From: a virus
Lineage: Duplodnaviria > Caudoviricetes
Virus record (IMG/VR): IMGVR_UViG_3300001525_000075
Location: 15,144-79,143 of that record
Direction: 5' to 3' (one strand)
Length of the DNA stretch: 64,000 nt
Shown here one piece after another: positions 18,560 to 28,384 of the stretch; within the stretch, counting starts at the first letter, position 1, and every line of letters starts with the position of its first letter. The notes beneath the pieces are model-generated. The model ran no database searches and was not told where the DNA came from. It saw only the letters and a program-made list of their open reading frames with translations. A program made the translations under genes and the position numbers.

Positions 18560-20230
18560 ATGGAATTTGTAACAAAATCAAATTTAACTAAATATACCAC
18601 TTATCTAAATGAATATTTAAAGAAATATTATTAGCATTTAGATATTAATGGGTATCAACAACAACCTAATATTACTGGAACTACTGTAGGAACATCAGGT
18701 AATGATAATTATTTAAGAGCTTCTATTCCTACAGGAACTACAGGTGAAAATTCACCCAATTGGTATTATGCTACTGATGGTAGTTTGTAGGATATTAGTA
18801 CTAAAACTGTTGCTTCTGCTGATAAATTGAGTAATACTGTTAAAATATGGGGTAACGATTTTGATGGTAGTAGTGATATTGACGGGGATATAACAATTAA
18901 CGGTTCTATTATTGCATCCGACTCGCAATTAATTGACCTTGGTCTCACAAGTGGTACACTTTGGATGGACAGAAATGTAGGTGCAAGTAGTCCAGAAGAT
19001 GCAGGTTTATATTTTGCTTGGGGTGAAACAACTGGTTATACTGCTGATGAAGTTGGTAAGACAAAACAGTTCAGTTGGGATGATTATAAGTATGGAAATA
19101 GTCTGACTAAGTATAATAAGACTGATGGTTTAACCACTTTGGAAACTACTGATGATGCGGTATTGCAGAATGTGCATAAGTACAGTATGCCTACTAAGGA
19201 GCAGATAGTTGAGCTTATCAAGGAAACTGATGTGTATTGCATTAAGGCAGATGGCACTGAAGTACATGGCACATATCAAGAAGGCACTGGTGCAGGTGGC
19301 CGAATGATTGCTTGGGATAGTGAAATCGGTGATGATGAGCAGCTTAACGGTATTGAGTTTAGAAAGAAAACGGATAATTCAATCAAGGTTTTCGTTCCTT
19401 GTGCAGGCAATGGCTATGAAGGCTCTATGTACGATGTTGGCTTGAGTTGTTTCTTGTGGGCTAGCTCTTTGAATGGGGATGGTCCTTACGATGCTTGGAG
19501 CTTGGGCTTCTATTACCGTGGTGGCTACTGTGTCAGCGGCAACGGTCGCTGTATCGGTCTTCCTGTGCGAGGTGTGGCAACACCAGTAGAAGGTTCTAAA
19601 ACATATACTCTTCCTTCATCAAGTGGTACATTAGCTTTAGACAACGTAGCTAGTACAACCTCTAATGGATTAATGAGTTCTGAGGATAAAACTAATTTAG
19701 ATGATCATTTAAAAAACTATGATAATCCTCATAAAGTCACTAAGAATCAGATAAATTTAGGCAATGTAGATAACACATCAGATTCTTAGAAAAATGTATT
19801 ATCTGCAACTAAATTAACTACAGTAAGAACCATTTGGGGACAATCGTTTGACGGAACTGCTAATATTTCAGGTGATGCTACATATTTAATGAGCATTAAT
19901 AATTCTGATGGTGATTCTGTTACTAGTATTAATAACGAACCTTCTAATACTAATCATTTTATACAGTTTGGTAAATAGAATCGAGATTATGTATTATGGA
20001 ATGAATACGGAGGGATTTGGAAATTTAATAGTGGAACCAACGGGGCTAATTTCCTTGTTCAATTAGGAAATACTAATTATTTTGCTAATAATATAGGTGT
20101 TGGAACAAGTTCTCCTTCGGAATCTATTCATACAACAGGAAATGTAAAAGCTTCTGAATATAAATTAACTGATGGTTCTGTTTACGCTGAACCTAGTACT
20201 ACTGATGACATAAATACTTTGTTTGAATGA
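18560..20230 (+). CDS. Tail fibre with an internal Fib_succ_major/C-type-lectin-like domain, 556 aa (TAG=Gln)
   Basis: ATG at 18560, in frame with track ORF 18827, TGA at 20228. Two IWGxxFDG shaft repeats flank DLGLTSGTLWMDRNVGASSPEDAGLYFAWGE...LPVRGV. Confidence 0.75.
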
Positions 20231-22212
20231 AATATGTATCTAAAGACAATCTGACACAATATGATTCTTTAATTAAAGAATATATTAAAAATAGAACTCA
20301 AGATATTGATGATATTTTCAGTTATGGTGTAACTTGGAAAGTTAATCAAGCAGATCCTCATGTTACTAGAATAGGAAATATGAATTATCACAAAACTCTT
20401 CCTATTCAAAGTAATATGAGAGGATGTATTGTTCAATTTACAAGTGGTAAACCTTCAGTTCAATATTATTTAAATCCTGATGATTGGAGATTTATGCCAA
20501 GTGGTAAAGCTGTGACAATTACAAGCTATACTAGAACTGATAATACTATAACAAATACTACATATTTTTCAGATCATAAATATGAATATTCTTGGATTAA
20601 ATATTATAATTCAGATAATTCAAGTTATACTGAAATGTGGATTGGTAGTATTGATATTAGTACAGGTACCGCAACATTATATGCTGATGAAGATAAAAAT
20701 ACTATAGATGACTCAGTTTGGTTAAGTTCAAACCCTAAAATAGAATTGGGAACTTCTCTTAATGGATTTGACGGTCAGGTTATGGTAGAAATTCCTGAAT
20801 TTTGGATTAAATCTAAACAAACTGATACAGATAATGAAGTTAGAATTTATACTGCGCCTGTAGTTGAAAATTTAACGCATTAGAAGAAATGTTATCTTGC
20901 AGCATATCACATGAGTACTTTAAATAGTGCTGTAACGAATTGGGGTTATCTTAGTACATTTAAATCATTTCCTGTTGGTTTAAGTATTAAAAATTATAAT
21001 TCTGCTTGTAGAGGTGGAAATCGTAATACACATTATGAAAATACTAATAGATATAGATGTACTTTAGGTAAACCTGCAACAAGCTATAACCGTACTCAAG
21101 TTAGAACATATTGTAGATATAGTAATATTGAGAATATGAACTATGTTCAATACAAAAATATATTGGTTTGGTTATGGGTTATTGAATATGCTAATAGATA
21201 CTCACAAGAAACTTTTAATTCTTCCTTGACAACTGAAGGTTATCATCAAGGAGGTATGGGAGCAGGTGTGTCAATAGTAGGAAATTGGAATTATTTAAAT
21301 GAACAAAATCCTTGTATTACCAATGGATTTACTGATTCGTTAGGTAACAATTCAGGTTATATTACAGCTACTATTCCTTCGTTTGATTATACAAAATATT
21401 CTATTTGGTTTAATTCAATGGCTACAAATGGAAATGTTGTAGTATCTAGTAACGGAAGTAATAATTCTAAAGTAATTACTCAAGTGAAAGCGGTTACTAA
21501 TTATGCATTTTATCATAATCCTGATAATGTTTGGGGAACTACAACTTATGTTATTAGTGGATTAACTGATGGACAAAGTGTATATTTCAGAGAAGGAAGT
21601 GGATTTACTACAGCTAATACAATATTAGAAGTAACTGAAGATGGTACTTATGACGTGTCTTGGCAAGGTTATAATACAGGTGGACAGAAGGGGGTATCTT
21701 TTGGTAAAGAACAAACTAGTTGTAATATTACAATTTATAATTCTAAACAAACAACAGCTGTTGTAACACAATCTCAACAAACTGTTCAAGTACCTAGATG
21801 GAGAGGTATAGAACAACCTTTTGGTGATATTTGGAATAGTATTGAAGGTGTTGCATTTGTAGTAGAAAATAGAAAAAAGAATATGTATTATACTACAGAT
21901 CCTGACAAATATGTTGATTCTAATTTCTCTACAAATATGGAATTTCATGGTGAAATTCCACAGACTTCATATTGGATTTCTGAAATTGATTTATAGGAGA
22001 GCGCAGAAATAATTCCTAAAGCAGCTTGTAATAGCTCTAATACTTATTATACAGACTTTATTTGGGGGAATAATTCTACTAGTTGTGGTTTGTTGGTGGG
22101 TGTCAACGCCTGGGACGGGGCTCAGGGCGGCCTTTTCGGTTTCTTTTCGCGTTTCGGCGTTGGTCTTTCTTGGTCGCTTGTCGGGTTTCGCCCTTCGTAT
22201 GAACTTTCATAA
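20227..22212 (+). CDS. DGR target: receptor-binding fibre with C-terminal CLec-fold variable region, 661 aa (TAG=Gln)
   Basis: Track ORFs 20227 and 20911 plus the tail are joined by TAGs at 20881 and 21994. Ends ...VGVNAWDGAQGGLFGFFSRFGVGLSWSLVGFRPSYELS-TAA, which contains the VR. Confidence 0.88.
22084..22196 (+). repeat. DGR variable repeat (VR), 113 nt
   Basis: Ungapped alignment to 22344-22456 (offset 260) with 13 mismatches; lies in the last ~38 codons of the target gene. Confidence 0.9.
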
Positions 22213-22225
22213 AACTGTTTTGCTG

Positions 22226-22245
22226 AAAATTAAATTTTTAATTTT
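22226..22245 (+). other. Inverted repeat downstream of VR (candidate DGR homing hairpin)
   Basis: AAAATTAA-ATTT-TTAATTTT, 14 nt after the target stop. The position matches VR-downstream hairpins of characterised DGRs, but it is pure A/T and could be chance. Confidence 0.4.
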
Positions 22246-22254
22246 ATTGTAAAA

Positions 22255-22286
22255 TTTGTGTATATCTCGAAAATATAATACCTTAG
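22255..22286 (+). promoter_or_regulatory. Putative Bacteroidota-type promoter for the TR-RT transcript
   Basis: TTTG-N20-TAccTTAG, one mismatch to the TTTG-N19-21-TAnnTTTG consensus, ~60 nt upstream of the TR. Confidence 0.45.
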
Positions 22287-22343
22287 TAAATGTGAGTTAA
22301 TCACACGGTTGCTACTGACAGTAAACTTGTGTCACATCAAAAG

Positions 22344-22456
22344 TGTGGTTTGTTGGTGGGTGCCAACGCCTAGAGCGGAGCTCATTGCGGCCTTTTCGCT
22401 TTCTATTCGCATTACGACGTTGGTCGTTCTTGGTCGCTTGTCGGGTTTCGCCCTTC
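22344..22456 (+). repeat. DGR template repeat (TR) position, non-coding
   Basis: Second copy of the repeat, lying between the target gene and the RT. Preceded by nested stems (CACAC/GTGTG, TGACA/TGTCA) and followed by ACCTTACCTCTTGGTAAAA (22509-22527), which resembles the post-TR segment I recall from Bacteroidota DGRs. 7 of the 13 differences from VR are at TR adenines. Confidence 0.8.
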
Positions 22457-22661
22457 CTAAAAGTAGTCTATAAAAATCGTTACCGTAGGGTTAGATAAGT
22501 GCAGTAGAACCTTACCTCTTGGTAAAAAATAAAGTTTACAGTGGGTGTAGATCCTAGTAGAGAAATCGAAAGGGTGTTAAACACTACTTCAATAATATAT
22601 AATTAAAAAATAGACTACTTTAAGACAATTCATTTTATTAACTAAATAAATTTTAAAAGTT

Positions 22662-23921
22662 ATCAAGCGCATTGGTAATTTAATGCCTCGTCTATGTTAC
22701 ACTTGGAATCTAGAAAATTCAGATTTACAAGCAAGAAGAGGTAAAAAATGTAAGAGAGCTATAATTGAACATTCACTTGTAGCTGATGAACACTATAAGG
22801 AGTTAATAAATAAGTTTCAAACAGGAACTTATAAAACATCTCCTTATAGTCTTTTTAAGATATATGAACCCAAGGAACGTATTATTTATAGACTACCATA
22901 TTATCCTGATCGACTGACACACCATGCAATTATGTCAGTCGTGAAGGATTTATGGATTAAACAATTTATACCTAATACTTACAGTTGTGTTCCGGATAGA
23001 GGAATTACAAAAGTGGTTCATGATTTAAAAAGAGATTTATATAGATATGAATGGAGAACAACTTATTGTTTAAAATTAGATATAACTAAATTTTATCCCT
23101 CTGTTAATCATCAGATTCTAAAAGATATTCTTGCTAAAAAGATTAAAGATAAACAATTTTTAGCATTACTTGGAGAAATTATCGATTCGGTTAATGATTA
23201 TGTTCCTCAAAAAGGAACAGGAATTCCAATAGGTAATTATTTATCTCAATATTTTTCTAATCTTTATTTGACTTATTTTGACCGATGGTGTAAAGAAACT
23301 TTACATTGTAGATTTTATTATAGATATGCTGACGATATAGTGATACTATCGGATAGTAAAGAATTTTTACACAATTGTTTGAAACAAATCAAAGAATATT
23401 TAAAAGTTAATCTTAAACTCACAGTTAAATCAAATTATTAGGTGTTTCCTGTTGAAGCTAGAGGTATCGATTTTGTTGGTTATGTATTTAGACATAATTA
23501 CATAAAAGTGAGAAAGAAAACAAAAAAGAAAGTAATGCGTTTAGTTACCGCATTTCAACATAAGAAAATATGTAGAGATGTAATGTTTGATCATCTTGTA
23601 GCGTATTTAGGAATATTAAAATATGCTGACAGCAAGCATCTTCTAAAGAAAATTGAAGATATTACTAAAGTTCGTTACTCTAATTTCAAAGGTAAGTTAG
23701 ATAAAATTTCTAATTTTTATAATAGTGATTTAACCTATGTTATAGAGGCGATAGGACATCACAAGTATTATACCGTTAATTTTACATATAAATGTAAACC
23801 TTATACAGTAAAAAGTAGAAATGTTGATCAATGGTATGAATTAAAATGTGATATGAAATTACCTGAACTTTATTCTTTTAAAAAACATGAGAAACCCAAT
23901 TATACAAAAGTTTCAAGATAA
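22662..23921 (+). CDS. DGR-type reverse transcriptase, 419 aa from ATC 22662 (412 aa from ATG 22683), one internal TAG
   Basis: IYEPKERII..LPYYPDR..HHAI, LKLDITKFYPSV, GIPIGNYLSQ (DGR-type IGxxxSQ), YADD, then NY-TAG(Q)-VFPVEARGIDFVGY, where Gln fits the recalled QVFPV motif. Confidence 0.95.
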
Positions 23922-24243
23922 ACCTGATACATTTATTGATTTAGGAACTGGCGATTGGTATTATAATTATAATATTAATCAATGTGCTATGACAGTTTTT
24001 TCTAATATCGAATCTACAGAAGTATTCTCTGAAACTCCTGGATATGAATTTATTCAAGTTCGTATTTCAGGAAGACCTACATATGAAAAATGTGTAAGAG
24101 CGATTATTAGAGAGTATGTTACTATGGATGAAGAATTTGATCTTATTAATTCTTATAATAGAGATAATTCTAATGAAGAATATAAAGAATATCTTAAACT
24201 GTTAGAAGAAATTAAATCAAAAGTTAGAAAAGATTTTGATTAA
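23887..24243 (+). CDS. Small phage protein, possible fibre assembly chaperone, 118 aa
   Basis: Track ORF ending TAA. C-terminal DEEFDLINSY...EYKEYLKLLEEIKSKVRKD helix pattern resembles proteins seen next to phage fibre genes; the function is a guess. Confidence 0.6.
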   Translation: MRNPIIQKFQDKPDTFIDLGTGDWYYNYNINQCAMTVFSNIESTEVFSETPGYEFIQVRISGRPTYEKCVRAIIREYVTMDEEFDLINSYNRDNSNEEYKEYLKLLEEIKSKVRKDFD

Positions 24244-24270
24244 TCTAAAATAATAATTTAATTTAACACC

Positions 24271-24310
24271 ATAAAACCTCGGAATCTTAGGATTTCGGGG
24301 TTTTATTTTT
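24271..24310 (+). terminator. Rho-independent terminator closing the fibre-DGR unit
   Basis: AAAACCTCGGAATC-TTAG-GATTTCGGGGTTTT stem followed by ATTTTT. Confidence 0.8.
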
Positions 24311-24324
24311 ATATTTATTAAAAT

Positions 24325-24355
24325 TTTGTTTTATAATAATTAAATCATATATTGG
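24325..24355 (+). promoter_or_regulatory. Putative Bacteroidota-type promoter
   Basis: TTTG-N19-TAtaTTGG immediately after the terminator. Confidence 0.45.
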
Positions 24356-24444
24356 AGGAGTCATGACAAAATCGAACTTATAAATTTTAATCAGATAATT
24401 ATATAACAAGATTTCATTAGTTTAACATTTTTAATTTTTATTTT

Positions 24445-25350
24445 ATGTCTGATAGTAAAGTTTTTATGTTTCCTGAACAAAGTAGTAATTCAGGAATCAT
24501 GTCTATGTTAGCTCCGTTGTTATAGCAAAAAGGAGTTGATCCTAACGTGTTATTAGCTATGAGAAACAACTCAGGTTTTGGAGGTGAAGGTGGCTGGTTC
24601 ATGTGGGTAATTTTCTTATTCTTCCTTATGGGATGGGGAGGAAATGGTTGGAACGGATTGGGAAATAGAGGTACTGAAGGTTTAACAAATCAAATTAATA
24701 ATGATTATGGAAGAGACCTTTTATTACAGGCTATTAACGGAAATGCCACAGCTATATCTCAATTAGCTACTACTCTTAATTGTGATGTTAATGCTATTCA
24801 AGATGCAATTAATTCTGTAAATTCTAATGTAAGTAATGTAAGTAATCAAGTTGGATTATCTAGTCAACAAGTAATTAATGCAATCCAAAGTGGTAATCAA
24901 ACTATTGCTGCACAAATGGCACAATGTTGCTGTGATAATAAATTACTTGTTACTAATCAAGGATATGAGTCTAGAATAGCAACGTTAGAATAGACAAATC
25001 AATTAGGATCTAAAGTAGACGCAGGAACAAGTCAAATTACTAATGCTATTGCAAATTAGACTGCACTTATTAATGATAGATTTTGTGCATTAGAATTGCG
25101 TGATATGCAAGCTAAGATTGACGCTTTGCAAGAAGAAAAGAGTACTTTACAAAATCATATAAGTAATGCTAATCAAACTACTCAAATTCAATCTTATATC
25201 GCAAATGTAGTTAATCCTATTGCACAAGAAGTTAATGCTATTAAATCAGCATAGCCTGCTACAGTAACATTACCTTATAGTTGTGCAACTGCTGTCCCAA
25301 CAGCTTTAGCTTATCAACAAGGTTTAAGTACTTAGGGTTTATGGTATTAA
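24445..25350 (+). CDS. Conserved gut-phage protein with a Gly/Trp-rich hydrophobic segment and coiled coil, 301 aa (TAG=Gln)
   Basis: MSDSKVFMFPE...GGWFMWVIFLFFLMGWGGNGW...NDYGRDLLLQAINGN...AQCCCDNK; in frame through TAGs to TAA at 25348. Confidence 0.8.
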
Positions 25351-25364
25351 GAAAGGAGGTATCT

Positions 25365-25685
25365 ATGTTTATTAATAGATATTTAAGTAATACTTCAGGA
25401 ATTCCTAGATTTGAATCTAATTCTGTAAATGTCAATAGTTCAAATGTAGTATTTTCATTTACAGATGCTGGAACTTATTTTAATGATAATTTTTGTGGAC
25501 TAATTTTAATTAAGATTAGTCAAAGTATTCCATCGGATACTACAACTACTCTTCCTATTTTAATTAATACAATTCCTGTAACTACATATGGAAATGAATC
25601 AATAACAGTTTCTGAATTTAAAGGTACAGGAATATATTTAGGATATTATGACGGAAAGAGCAAATCTATTCAAATAATATTATAA
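25365..25685 (+). CDS. Hypothetical protein, 106 aa
   Basis: ATG preceded by GAAAGGAGGT. The track start at 25281 overlaps the previous gene and is unlikely. Confidence 0.7.
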   Translation: MFINRYLSNTSGIPRFESNSVNVNSSNVVFSFTDAGTYFNDNFCGLILIKISQSIPSDTTTTLPILINTIPVTTYGNESITVSEFKGTGIYLGYYDGKSKSIQIIL

Positions 25686-25686
25686 T

Positions 25687-26151
25687 ATGTTTTCAGCATT
25701 ACAACAAGGTGGAGTTTTGCATATATTAGAAAAATCTAATACTCCAACTTATAAAATAGGTTAGATTCAAAGTATTTCTTCTTAGAAATATACTTCTAAT
25801 TTTATGTTATCTACTATAGACATTACAGTCGAAGTTGATGATTAGAAGTTGGATTTTAAAAATATTCCGAGTTCACAATCTATAGCTTATTATAACGATG
25901 TAATTATCACAGAAACTAAAGAACAAATGCTTTCAGAAGTAGAAAATTTATTACAATCTTCTAAAAATATATTGGAAAGTATAGATAAACATAAAGTTAT
26001 AGTAGAATCTTGTGAAGAAATACTTAAATCTTTAAATCCGCAGTTTGCTAAAGAACATGAAAGAGATTAGAGATTAAATACTTTAGAATCTAAGTTTGAA
26101 ACTGTAGAATCTAAAATTGATTAGTTAATAACATTAGTAAATACAAAATAA
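25687..26151 (+). CDS. Hypothetical coiled-coil protein, 154 aa (TAG=Gln)
   Basis: MFSALQQGGVLHILEK...; contains track ORF 25849; TAA at 26149. Confidence 0.7.
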
Positions 26152-26152
26152 T

Positions 26153-26317
26153 ATGACTGTCATGGAACTCGATGATACTAAATATACCAAAGTACACAAA
26201 GCATTAAATTGTTTAAGTGAACAAATAGAATATTTAAAAGAACTTATGGATGATTCTATTGATTTTAGAGAACCTAAAAGATATAGAGAAGATTATCCTA
26301 GATACCGTTACTATTAA
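26153..26317 (+). CDS. Small hypothetical protein, 54 aa
   Basis: Exactly fills the gap between neighbours (TAATATG start, TAATG overlap); Y/R-rich C-terminus. Confidence 0.5.
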   Translation: MTVMELDDTKYTKVHKALNCLSEQIEYLKELMDDSIDFREPKRYREDYPRYRYY

Positions 26318-26694
26318 TGAGAAGTTTAGATATTTATGAAACTAAACCAAAAGATATGATAAGATATTTATCATATTATGGGTGGCATTTTAATAAGAAA
26401 ATGTGTCAATTTGCTTTGAAATAGTTACATAATAAAACTATAGACAAAGATAAAGTTGATACGTTATTATCTACATATAACATAGAATTAGAAAACAATT
26501 ATTCTTACGATTATGTGTATGTTGCTAATTTTGGTTTAGTATATTATTTAAAATCTAGTATTCCTGATGAAAAATGTTTAGCATAGTATATTAAAGATAC
26601 TATAGATAAACAAGATTCAGAACTAGTATTTACACAGTGGTATGCAAGTATGTGTAGACTTGGAATTCCCATTGATTGGGAAGATATGTTATAA
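26317..26694 (+). CDS. Conserved Bacteroidota phage hypothetical protein, 125 aa (TAG=Gln)
   Basis: YLSYYGWHFNKKMCQFA...YDYVYVAN...SSIPDE...GIPIDWEDML; missed by the track because of two TAGs. Confidence 0.7.
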
Positions 26695-27016
26695 TAATTG
26701 GACAATCTATATACTTTATAACTGTTCTATCGATTTAGTTAAACAGTATTTAAAGGAAATAGATTGTCCTTTTTCTATATTAGATAAAATAGAATCTACT
26801 AATAACTTAGGGTTTACTTATTCTAATTACTCTTTAAAGAATAGTATTATTTCTATTAAGTATACTAATCATATTTCCGATTTTATAAACACTTTATCTC
26901 ACGAATGTACTCATTTGGTATTTCATATAAATTAGTATATCTTTAAAGAAGATATTGCAACTCAAATTGGTGATTTATCTTAGATAATATTTGAATTATT
27001 TTCAACTAATAAATAA
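26642..27016 (+). CDS. Small HExxH (zincin-like) protein; start uncertain
   Basis: GFTYS...INTLSHECTHL motif; extends through TAGs to TAA at 27014. Confidence 0.55.
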
Positions 27017-27022
27017 ATTTTA

Positions 27023-27277
27023 ATGGAAACTATTTTAGGTAATAGTTACGAATCTGTCGGAAATGTAAATACAGATTTGTTATTAAAAACTAGAGGAAAT
27101 ATTAAAGTTCAAGTTGGTAATACTTTTAAAGACCTATTGGAAAATGAAGGAAATACATCTATTGTTAAAACTACAGATAGTGAACCTTCTTCAAGTTTAA
27201 GTTCAGGATTTTATTTATATGAAAATAAGTTATATTTAGTACACGGAGAAACCGTATTAAAATTTAATCCTGCGTAA
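27023..27277 (+). CDS. Hypothetical protein, 84 aa
   Basis: Track ORF with ATG and TAA; DLLLKTRGNIKVQVGNTFKDL. Confidence 0.7.
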   Translation: METILGNSYESVGNVNTDLLLKTRGNIKVQVGNTFKDLLENEGNTSIVKTTDSEPSSSLSSGFYLYENKLYLVHGETVLKFNPA

Positions 27278-27293
27278 ACAAAACTTTACAATT

Positions 27294-27323
27294 TTTGTTA
27301 ATTCAAAATTATTATTATTTTTG
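27294..27323 (+). promoter_or_regulatory. Putative Bacteroidota-type promoter for the scaffold/MCP operon
   Basis: TTTG-N18-TAttTTTG, with a perfect -7 element. Confidence 0.5.
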
Positions 27324-27346
27324 AAATTGATTATTAATTAAAAATA

Positions 27347-28384
27347 TTGAAAATGACAATAGGAATTGATGACATTGATGATTTTGAAGAACCGATTCAA
27401 GAACCTTATGCGGAACCTGAACCTAATGGTTTTGAAGAACCTACGGAATCTCCTGCTGAAGGTACGACTGAAGATGATATTATTAAATCACTTTTAAATG
27501 ATAGAGGTATCAAAGATCCTGATAAAATCACATTTGAAGATGAAGGAGTAGTAACTGAAAGATCTTGGAATGATTTGACTAATGATGAAAAACGTGCAAT
27601 TTTGAATCAAAGTCCTGATAAAGATCCTGAGGTTGATTTAGATGAACAAGAAATTCAGATGATTAATCAAATGCGTTTAAATGGTATGAATCCTGAGCAA
27701 TACGTAACAGCTTTGAGAAAGCAAGGTTATGATTATTATGTTAAAACTCAGAATGATACTACTCCAGATTATTCAACAGATGATTTATCTGATGATGAAC
27801 TTTATATGTTAGATATTCAATATAGAACTCCCGAGATGACAGAGCAAGAAGCTTATGATGCACTTGTAGCAGCTAAAGCCAACGAAACTCTATTCAATAA
27901 ACAGATGGTGGGTTTAAGAAATTATTATAGAGGTTTGGAAACTGATATGAAAGCTCAGAAAGATGCTGAAGTTAAAGAACAAGAACAACAGCAATTTCAA
28001 CAGTATTCAAATTCTATTATAAACGCTATACAAAATACAAGATCCATAGGTAATTTGGACATTGACCTCAATCAACAAGATAAAGAGGACATTGCGCAAT
28101 TTATTCTTGGACGAGATCAGGCTGGTATTAATTGGTTCGGTAAAGCCCTTGAAGATCCAGATACTGTAGTTAGAATGGCTTGGTTTGCACTTAAAGGTGA
28201 CGAAGCTTTTAATGATATTGAAAACTACATATCAGAACAGATTAAAACTGCTGCTCAAAATGCTTATAATAAGGGGTTAGCAGATGGAAAAAATAAAAGC
28301 AACGCATCAGTAGTGATAACAAATAATAATCCTACGATACGTAATTCTAGAGAAATAACTAGTGTAAACGATTTAGATTTTTAA
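27347..28384 (+). CDS. Acidic protein directly upstream of MCP (putative scaffold); start may be ATG 27353
   Basis: 345-aa TAG-free ORF with a very acidic N-terminus and helical Q/E-rich middle. Function inferred from position and composition. Confidence 0.6.
   Translation: MKMTIGIDDIDDFEEPIQEPYAEPEPNGFEEPTESPAEGTTEDDIIKSLLNDRGIKDPDKITFEDEGVVTERSWNDLTNDEKRAILNQSPDKDPEVDLDEQEIQMINQMRLNGMNPEQYVTALRKQGYDYYVKTQNDTTPDYSTDDLSDDELYMLDIQYRTPEMTEQEAYDALVAAKANETLFNKQMVGLRNYYRGLETDMKAQKDAEVKEQEQQQFQQYSNSIINAIQNTRSIGNLDIDLNQQDKEDIAQFILGRDQAGINWFGKALEDPDTVVRMAWFALKGDEAFNDIENYISEQIKTAAQNAYNKGLADGKNKSNASVVITNNNPTIRNSREITSVNDLDF

Follow-up and report, generated by a model that had tools for sequence, protein, structure and literature searches.

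Invariance of the template, which allows indefinite re-diversification, is stated as the rule for the model DGR system (PMC3240598). In the DGR of BPP-1, the template repeat (TR) 'remains unchanged throughout', and the direction of transfer is set by a 21-bp IMH carrying five mismatches to IMH* (PMC3240598; PMC7826257). For crAss-like DGRs, IMH and IMH* are reported to be identical (PMC7290462). Self-mutagenesis of the TR, with preferential removal of adenines, has been observed in synthetic DGRs lacking directional control, and the authors of these engineered systems contrast it with natural DGRs (10.1101/2025.03.24.644984; 10.64898/2026.07.21.739853); template erosion is treated as a fault peculiar to synthetic designs (10.64898/2026.07.21.739853). 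To date, only engineered systems have been described as breaking the rule of one-way transfer from template to target.

The window (the whole 64,000-nt stretch of phage DNA analyzed here) encodes a DGR that shares its layout with the crAss-like phage DGR of the LMMB type (RT lineage 3; PMC7290462). In both, the order is target–VR–TR–RT, avd is absent and the target is a tail protein; in the window, no ORF separates VR and TR. An imperfect repeat pair lies beside an RT gene, with the VR ending the target ORF and the TR non-coding, as expected of a DGR. Unlike LMMB, the window phage recodes TAG as Gln. Read in this way, the target gene (20227..22212, plus strand, like all features below) encodes a 661-aa tail protein with TAG=Gln codons at 219 and 590; it matches phrog_5302 tail protein (E 1e-53) and has orthologous 661-aa counterparts in relatives, while searches of Pfam and NCBIfam returned no match. 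The VR (22084..22199), delimited by the repeat family, alignments and translation, makes up the final ~38 codons of this gene and encodes CGLLVGVNAWDGAQGGLFGFFSRFGVGLSWSLVGFRPS, with a GC content of 58% vs 29% for the genome. In BPP-1, too, the VR closes a receptor-binding tail gene at its 3′ end. For the last 199 aa of the target, AlphaFold gave a model with a mean pLDDT of 36, unusable for fold assignment; the C-terminal pattern ...GxxWS..GFRP is merely suggestive with regard to a C-type-lectin (or Ig) fold.

The reverse transcriptase (22683..23921; 412 aa, TAG=Gln at codon 253) was identified from its translation and from matches to Pfam RVT_1 (E 2e-17) and phrog_1423 (E 2e-99). Its nearest solved structure is 8ub7 (E 5e-39, vs 1e-14 for group II intron and retron RTs), which we take to be the Bordetella phage bRT. 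The motifs IGNYLSQ and YADD are present, fulfilling the DGR-clade signature [I/V/L]GxxxSQ defined in PMC7826257, and the equivalents of bRT R74/I181, the adenine-mutagenesis residues (PMC7826257), are retained; in its bRT homology, IGxxxSQ motif and R74/I181 equivalents, the enzyme resembles that of BPP-1. The protein keeps 61 of the 61 columns invariant among 33 homologs, and its dN/dS on the window branch is 0.18, indicating purifying selection. Its closest GenBank relatives are those of crAss-like phages, at 65–69% nucleotide identity, and all 21 GenBank phage matches are crAss-like or uncultured gut phages (64–75%). This grouping rests on GenBank matches, without a formal tree against lineage 3 references.

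The repeat pair (22084–22199 and 22344–22459) is 116 nt long, ungapped and 88% identical, at a spacing of 260. Across the 113-nt core used for mismatch counts (VR 22084–22196, TR 22344–22456), VR and TR differ at 13 sites, seven at TR adenines and six at TR C, G or T (22363, 22375, 22385, 22386, 22399 and 22426). The TR core contains only ten adenines, and the terminal 30 nt are identical between the repeats. The mismatches remain adenine-biased (7/10 A sites vs 6/103 others, p = 5e-6). The DGR criterion that differences be (almost) confined to TR adenines is nevertheless unmet in the window, whereas all nine close relatives satisfy it; nor does the window TR conform to the expectation of an A-rich TR invariant among related elements. 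In the LMMB DGR, VR and TR likewise end in identical GC-rich 3′ sequence, but its TR holds 28 adenines, with 21 A-to-N and two non-A differences. Compared with BPP-1, the window element has an altered TR, lacks avd, and its VR and TR flanks diverge fully after the common 11–30 nt.

In ten contigs of related phages, obtained from independent samples, the same locus holds a near-invariant TR with 30–31 adenines. The VR/TR mismatches of the nine close relatives fall at adenines in 20–25 cases and at non-A sites in 0–2, the same adenine specificity as in BPP-1. Pairwise, the relatives' TRs differ at 0–6 of 102 sites, and at 1–6 of 102 even between clades ~10% apart in their flanks; the window TR differs from them at 24–27 of 102. 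Relative to the relatives' consensus TR, 20 of 30 adenines are changed in the window vs 3 of 83 other sites (Fisher p = 5e-12), and change at adenines on the window branch amounts to 67% in the TR vs 5.8% in flanking DNA. In the relatives, the TR adenines are better conserved than flanking DNA. The 20 rewritten adenines comprise 11 A>G changes and nine transversions; compared with A substitutions in the flank, this transition/transversion spectrum could not tell DGR mutagenesis apart from ordinary substitution. Diversification is evident in the relatives L005, L007 and L010, which show no differences in 1.25 kb of flanks plus TR and 12–14 differences over 102 sites in the VR.

The altered TR resembles a VR allele. 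In the frame of the VR, its translation is CGLLVGANAQSGAHCGLFAFYSHYDVGRSWSLVGFRPS, a complete VR-like peptide with every scaffold residue of real VRs; its in-frame TAG is a sense codon, since the genome reads TAG as Gln, and in-frame TAG also occurs in VRs of relatives. At the eight sites where all VRs carry G, the window TR has G at seven, and the eighth is synonymous (GGA). At the 14 unconstrained rewritten sites, window VR and window TR agree at 12, while unrelated VRs match at 2–5. Overall, 110 of the 113 TR bases match the family TR or the window VR, the exceptions being 22375 G, 22417 A and 22426 G. The TR locus itself (22344..22459) has a position and flanks (…ACATCAAAAG and CCTAAAAGTAGTC…) orthologous to those of the relatives' A-rich TR; on its 3′ side, it has kept the TR-type flank and has gained neither a VR-type flank nor an inverted repeat. 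The window TR is thus derived, its change is adenine-specific, it is VR-like, and the RT beside it is intact.

A sequence-only reading of this locus had proposed that the template itself was rewritten. Its counts (13 mismatches in 113 nt, seven A and six non-A, ten TR adenines, identical final 30 nt) all held on recount, as did its TR reading frame, in which TAG is a sense codon. The alignment of TRs from related genomes that it called for favors rewriting through the adenine-specific change at 20/30 vs 3/83 sites in comparison with ten relatives. A third, AAY-rich copy of the repeat, which would have refuted it, was not found in an ungapped scan of both strands of the 79-kb record, although the phage record is only ~45% complete. 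Its reading of the six non-A mismatches as TR rewriting held only in part. Two of these sites (22375 and 22426) were template adenines that changed in the TR; at the other four, the TR retains the family base and the VR has changed, with loss of an otherwise invariant Cys among the changes.

A diagonal scan of more distant loci yielded ~60 in which a VR/TR pair could be detected, loci without one not being counted. The TRs of these ~60 are all A-rich (22–35% A), with 0–3 non-A mismatches. Fourteen seemingly A-poor survey loci were considered as further examples and rejected as VR–VR pairs of multi-VR cassettes; most have an identifiable A-rich TR adjoining the RT. A search of IMG/VR with the RT protein as single query yielded no relative. 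Exact-pattern scans of IMG/VR and JGI metagenomes with the shared 3′ end of the repeat, with the rewritten TR plus TR-type flank, and with the conserved spacer gave nothing, and hence no independent copy of the rewritten TR is at hand. The DGR module (~22050 to ~24700) is ~10% diverged from its nearest relatives vs 2–3% for the backbone, so its history includes recombination and cannot be fully reconstructed.

The likely explanation is that the template was overwritten with adenine-mutagenized VR-type sequence, either by mis-homing of cDNA or by VR-to-TR conversion. By which route this happened, in what order events took place and whether the element is active today are matters of inference. 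In this scenario, an ancestral TR with ~30 adenines, nearly intact in all sampled relatives, would have lost 20 and kept ten in the window lineage. The element's own products are the likely source: mutagenized cDNA may have entered the TR rather than the VR, or gene conversion may have carried a selected VR allele back into the TR, perhaps with a mosaic outcome; after either event, VR and TR would hold the new bases in common. Both routes, self-homing and VR-to-TR conversion, had been named in the sequence-only reading and both remain, as the sequence cannot distinguish them from each other or from mosaic repair. Block-wise patchy conversion would take more than ten switches within 80 nt and appears unlikely, while base-by-base heteroduplex repair could produce such a pattern. 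The mismatches left at TR adenines are consistent with the eroded template having since directed at least one normal homing event. Homing cannot account for seven other differences (four VR-only at non-A sites and three TR-only), which suggests that it has been rare or absent since the rewriting. By inference, the variable codons would drop from ~18 to ~8, so that the element would explore only a small neighborhood of one receptor-binding allele.

The overwriting model has weaknesses. It rests on a single metagenomic contig without read-level support, and no second genome has the same TR. Because the TR flank is still of TR type, nothing accounts for the TR having become a homing target. The four VR-only and three TR-only changes require extra events in every version of the model. 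Were TR and VR reads merged site by site into a consensus, the observed match of the TR to the family TR or the window VR at all but three sites would also result. The engineered DGRec (10.1101/2025.03.24.644984) and HGT-DGR (10.64898/2026.07.21.739853) systems, whose end state the window TR matches, differ in using recombineering integration without IMH control on E. coli plasmids, whereas the window belongs to a natural phage genome.

Among the alternatives, gradual selection under steady host conditions would have point mutations swap TR adenines singly to the favored base, with homing copying each to the VR. Theory foresees exactly such an outcome in a slowly changing environment, with TRs losing adenines and converging on the adapted VR while the DGR becomes progressively inoperative (10.64898/2026.02.18.706561). 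Selection of this kind accounts for the shared TR and VR bases and for the functional-looking allele encoded by the TR, and the 11 A>G changes and nine transversions are indistinguishable from ordinary flank A substitutions. We nevertheless consider it unlikely. It needs ~20 separate fixations at 11 times the rate of flanking A sites, at adenines that in all relatives are more conserved than the flanks, and it predicts a continuously active DGR with ~0 non-A mismatches, while six are observed. The theory models single spontaneous mutations, and the 67% vs 5.8% contrast together with the non-A mismatches better fits wholesale rewriting. An assembly or strain-mixture artefact, in which the true TR is A-rich and TR and VR reads, or two coexisting strains, were merged into a consensus or chimeric contig TR, is also improbable, yet, as the sequence-only reading had allowed, cannot be excluded without reads. 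In its favor are the 110 of 113 TR bases equal to the family TR or the window VR, the absence of the rewritten TR from any independent contig found, and the shift in divergence between module and backbone, which could reflect strain switching in assembly. Against it, the family TR and the window VR have no common exact stretch longer than ~11 nt, so a de Bruijn assembler could not have alternated sources at intervals of a few bases; the TR is bordered by TR-type flanks on both sides; 22375 G, 22417 A and 22426 G derive from neither source; and the VR locus shows no reciprocal admixture.

Two further explanations have little support. A pristine A-rich TR could lie in the unassembled part of the genome, the copy at 22344 being a second, non-coding homing target. 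The incompleteness of the record (~45%) and the existence of related DGRs with two or three VRs leave room for this, but all ten relatives have their sole TR at exactly the 22344-type locus, directly upstream of spacer and RT, multi-VR relatives keep an A-rich TR beside the RT, and 79 kb contain no third copy; we regard it as very unlikely. A noncanonical RT that misincorporates at all bases from a normal template, an alternative also raised by the sequence-only reading, would produce non-A mismatches directly. Such differences occur in 23% of DGRs, with up to 11 per target (PMC5758913), and the four VR-only changes at non-A sites are real here. This leaves the 20 adenine changes of the TR relative to the family TR unexplained, and the RT retains its DGR signature, all 61 invariant columns and the bRT-like adenine-mutagenesis residues, while relatives with 87–94% identical RTs show 0–2 non-A mismatches; it too is very unlikely. 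Neutral drift of an unconstrained TR was rejected, predicting ~6% adenine change vs the 67% observed. Descent of VR and TR as independent mutagenized copies of one old TR was rejected on their agreement at 12 of 14 informative sites, and an IMH swap on the unchanged TR flanks.

Returning to overwriting, a bolder reading remains possible, namely that the DGR is not strictly one-way and that mutagenized cDNA or VR product also replaces the template, irreversibly spending its adenines. If true, this would be a natural self-limiting ratchet turning a broad hypermutator into a narrow one around a single successful receptor-binding allele, and the TR-only adenine losses at 22375 and 22426 would imply that the process occurred more than once. 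The host-range ratchet proposed in the sequence-only reading stays an inference.

A natural template bearing the element's own adenine-specific signature would show the safeguard failing or being bypassed in nature, and a natural self-rewritten template would give a concrete route for DGR decay or specialization. The window TR would also offer an empirical case for the predicted loss of adenines (10.64898/2026.02.18.706561). Several VR/TR differences at non-adenine template positions were likewise seen in a survey of 372 DGRs (PMC5758913), whose authors put them down to unusual incorporation by the RT, faulty integration or independent mutations and did not consider TR change. Unlike in that survey, the relatives of the window permit polarizing, which identifies two of the six sites as TR changes at former adenines. 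We suggest that some of the non-A-to-N differences reported there may stem from altered templates and not from mistakes of the polymerase, a point checkable wherever close relatives exist. For DGR-finding software, few adenines in a TR combined with mixed mismatches do not necessarily mark a false positive.

Other parts of the locus were also compared. The only small ORF next to the cassette, a conserved one of 118 aa (23887..24243), overlaps the 3′ end of the RT gene and has a 116-aa counterpart in all relatives; it matches phrog_11557, of unknown function, with no Avd, other Pfam or NCBIfam match, and a link to the DGR is not shown. The 223-nt spacer between TR and RT (22460..22682), presumed to be the 3′ part of the DGR RNA, has 94% mean column identity across seven genomes. 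In the consensus fold, a conserved 14-bp long-range helix pairs 22457–22471 with 22610–22624; it is invariant across the compared genomes, and the fold lacks covariation support. In two small spacer hairpins, three pairs are disrupted in the window only. At the 3′ boundary of the VR, a DNA fold placed a short inverted repeat, TATGA/TCATA (22198..22211), which spans the last target codons, is weak (z = -1.4, not significant vs shuffles) and has no equivalent at the TR locus. It might be a VR-specific target mark, which we offer as a lead only. Its variable pair reads C-G in the L005 type; the type shared by the window and L009 has T-A.

The target of the diversity-generating retroelement (DGR) is a 661-aa tail-protein gene (20227–22212), which carries at its 3′ end the variable repeat (VR), a GC-rich repeat of 116 nt (22084–22199) in a window with a GC content of 29%. 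The second copy, the template repeat (TR, 22344–22459), lies 260 nt downstream of the VR copy and is followed, after a 223-nt spacer, by a reverse transcriptase (RT) of 412 aa (22683–23921). This target–VR–TR–RT order without avd is the layout given for crAssphage LMMB (PMC7290462), and the closest GenBank sequences to the window RT are RT genes of crAss-like phages. TAG is a sense codon across window positions 1–64000 and the whole 79-kb record and was taken as glutamine; under this translation broken frames join into long genes, many of which are long ORFs only with TAG read as Gln. No tRNA, suppressor tRNA included, is encoded in the 79-kb record. Among relatives, the RT contains 0, 1 or 2 in-frame TAGs, with none in L013.

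Contigs of related phages were drawn from independent Logan and ENA assemblies, ten with the TR locus (L005–L014) and one (L003) with its 3′ end only. The TR position is the same in all relatives, flanked by the same gap and spacer sequences (90–95% and 87–92% identical to the window, respectively). Their TR is nearly invariant, with 30–31 adenines per 113 nt, and their VR/TR mismatches lie at adenines in 20–25 cases and elsewhere in 0–2. Between clades with ~10% flank difference, the TRs differ at just 1–6 of 102 positions, which makes the template better conserved than the DNA around it. L005, L007 and L010, three contigs recovered from separate samples, are identical in the TR, the VR–TR gap and 1 kb spanning spacer and RT, while their VRs (L005:3398–3509 and equivalents) differ at 12–14 of 102 positions. 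VRs that differ within identical surroundings are direct evidence that the DGR is currently active in this sister lineage.

Compared with the adenine-rich consensus of this family, the window TR is changed at 20 of 30 adenines versus 3 of 83 other positions (Fisher p = 5e-12), one further changed position being itself T or A among relatives; 5.8% of flanking-DNA adenines are changed on the same branch. Translated in frame with the VR, the family TR gives CGLIVGANTQNRANCSLFSFNSNNSVGNSQSNNSFRPS and the window TR CGLLVGANAQSGAHCGLFAFYSHYDVGRSWSLVGFRPS, the latter having all scaffold residues common to real VRs, e.g., ..DGAxCGLF.. and ..SWS..GFRP. Of eight former adenine sites that are G in every VR, seven are G in the window TR as well, and the remaining one is a synonymous A. 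Among 14 rewritten sites where VRs are unconstrained, the window VR agrees with the window TR at 12; unrelated VRs match at 2–5. The VR-like scaffold, the G sites and the 12/14 agreement indicate that the window TR is a VR-type adenine-mutagenised sequence. It is probably related by copying to the VR of its own phage, and it lies between unchanged TR-type flanks.

The sequence-only reading had reported 13 VR/TR mismatches in 113 nt (seven at TR adenines, six at TR C, G or T), only 10 adenines in these 113 nt of the TR and identity of the final 30 nt of both copies; all of these counts held on recount. The mismatches are adenine-biased, affecting 7/10 A sites versus 6/103 others (p = 5e-6). Polarised against relatives, six of the 13 retain the family adenine in the TR and are changed in the VR, which is the normal DGR pattern, and position 22417 carries a G-to-A change in the TR alone. 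The expectation that the non-A sites were former adenines was met at two of six only (22375 and 22426, now G in the TR, with A and T, respectively, in the VR). At 22363, 22385, 22386 and 22399 it is the VR that departs from the family base still present in the TR, non-synonymously in all four cases. One of the four costs the window VR a Cys that every relative has in both VR and TR (TGC>GGC; VR codons CAG GGC, 22125–22126), and an invariant Ala has become Val (codon GTC, 22103). Both changes fall at non-adenine template positions and could reflect adaptation, decay or compensating change.

As a control, 80 IMG/VR loci with RTs 44–56% identical to the window RT were surveyed. Wherever a VR/TR pair was detectable, the TR was 22–35% adenine with 0–3 non-A mismatches, and the adenine-poor template is unique to the window among ~70 related elements. 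Fourteen apparently adenine-poor loci were not exceptions, being VR–VR pairs from cassettes that hold two or three VRs; an A-rich TR lies near the RT in 11 of them, and for L051 and L084 the next repeat recovered proved to be a third VR, the TR not being located. A multi-VR subgroup of the related IMG/VR phage DGRs (L047, L051, L068, L070, L074–L076, L078, L079, L081, L084, L087, L094) carries tandem VR-bearing repeats, two or three per element, ~380–420 nt apart, and 11 of its members have a single A-rich TR adjacent to the RT.

In the model system the TR "remains unchanged" (PMC3240598), and surveys that record non-A-to-N differences for 23% of DGRs leave a changed template out of consideration (PMC5758913). 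Template self-mutagenesis with adenine loss has been described in engineered systems, which the authors set against natural DGRs (10.1101/2025.03.24.644984; 10.64898/2026.07.21.739853); no natural case was found in the full-text literature searched. The window element belongs to a known kind and is in a natural state not documented before, with the reservation that this rests on a single assembly without read-level confirmation.

The sequence-only reading had proposed rewriting by self-homing or VR-to-TR conversion and suggested alignment with TRs of related genomes; the alignment supported a rewritten template and left the route unresolved. Mutagenised cDNA may have integrated into the TR, a selected VR allele may have been copied to the TR via gene conversion, or base-by-base repair of a VR/TR heteroduplex may have left a mosaic, and all three yield the same end state. 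The first two would need one later normal homing round to give adenine-biased mismatches; the third would not. A source already selected as VR is favoured because G is nearly complete at structurally fixed sites, a pattern that a single unselected cDNA would give with a probability of roughly 1e-3 (hand estimate, viable outcomes only). Repeated self-homing with selection also remains possible. Under every version of the rewriting model ~7 differences exceed what homing can make, and at flank neutral rates these suggest a long interval without homing. A long-dead element is disfavoured, since the RT frame is intact and its dN/dS is 0.18 on the window branch (0.06–0.13 on sister branches).

Among the rival explanations, gradual selected loss of TR adenines is predicted by a recent model (10.64898/2026.02.18.706561), but ~20 fixations would be needed, at a rate 11-fold that of the flanks, and zero non-A mismatches would be expected; we regard it as unlikely. 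The chief technical concern is an assembly artefact: the window TR matches the family TR base or the window VR base at 110/113 sites, like a site-wise consensus. Against this, the family TR and the window VR have no common exact stretch longer than ~11 nt, both TR flanks are TR-type, three TR bases are absent from both sources and no reciprocal admixture is seen in the VR; an artefact is improbable, though not excluded.

A pristine template hidden elsewhere is poorly supported and very unlikely. The whole-genome search proposed by the earlier reading, run without gaps over the two strands of the 79-kb record (estimated 45% complete) with the family TR, window TR and window VR as queries, found no third copy; the next best identity beyond the two known copies was 0.46–0.48. 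Equally little supports an RT without adenine bias, which we consider highly improbable. The window RT carries the DGR signature IGNYLSQ and a YADD motif, and falls in a 90%-identity protein cluster whose members are 84–94% identical to it; the contigs encoding these members supplied the relatives compared here. Its top solved-structure relative is PDB 8ub7 (E 5e-39; retron and group II intron RTs ~1e-14), which we take to be bRT, the DGR enzyme of Bordetella phage. Equivalents of bRT R74 and I181, two residues promoting adenine mutagenesis (PMC7826257), are retained.

From the last TR bases onward, an invariant 14-bp long-range helix pairs 22457–22471 (CTAAAAGTAGTCTAT) with 22610–22624 (ATAGACTACTTTAAG) and, in the predicted fold, encloses a multi-hairpin domain of the TR–RT spacer. 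This domain probably forms the structured 3′ portion of the DGR RNA; no covariation was found in the spacer fold. Only in the window do two small predicted hairpins lose pairs, three in all. Within this family VR and TR have just a short GC-rich 3′ end in common, and IMH and IMH*, the 3′ marks of VR and TR that set transfer direction, are reportedly identical in LMMB (PMC7290462). An IMH-type swap was rejected as the cause of lost directionality, the TR 3′ flank and the long-range helix being unchanged in the window. A short inverted repeat directly follows the VR over the final target-gene codons (22198–22211; L005:3512–3525), with one pair C–G in L005-type genomes and T–A in the window/L009 type; it is weak against shuffles and has no equivalent at the TR.

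The DGR module (~22050–24700) differs from L005 and L008, the closest relatives, by ~10% (up to 21%), versus 2–3% for the backbone on either side (19950–22050 and 24740–27400), in agreement with a dS of 0.17 in the RT versus 0.045 in the target body. From this contrast, which includes synonymous sites, we infer that recombination has probably swapped the module, with a junction close to the VR; the donor lineage may be where the rewriting took place. The most diverged part of the module (21% from L005) is a 118-aa ORF (23887–24243) that overlaps the RT 3′ end by 35 nt and is present as 116 aa in all relatives. It has no Pfam match and matches phrog_11557 (unknown function), and its role as a DGR accessory gene is not established. 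Upstream of the DGR target, the fibre gene at 18687–19750 is unalignable to relatives (~50% mismatches), whereas the following gene is 97–98% identical, identifying a swapped tail-fibre module.
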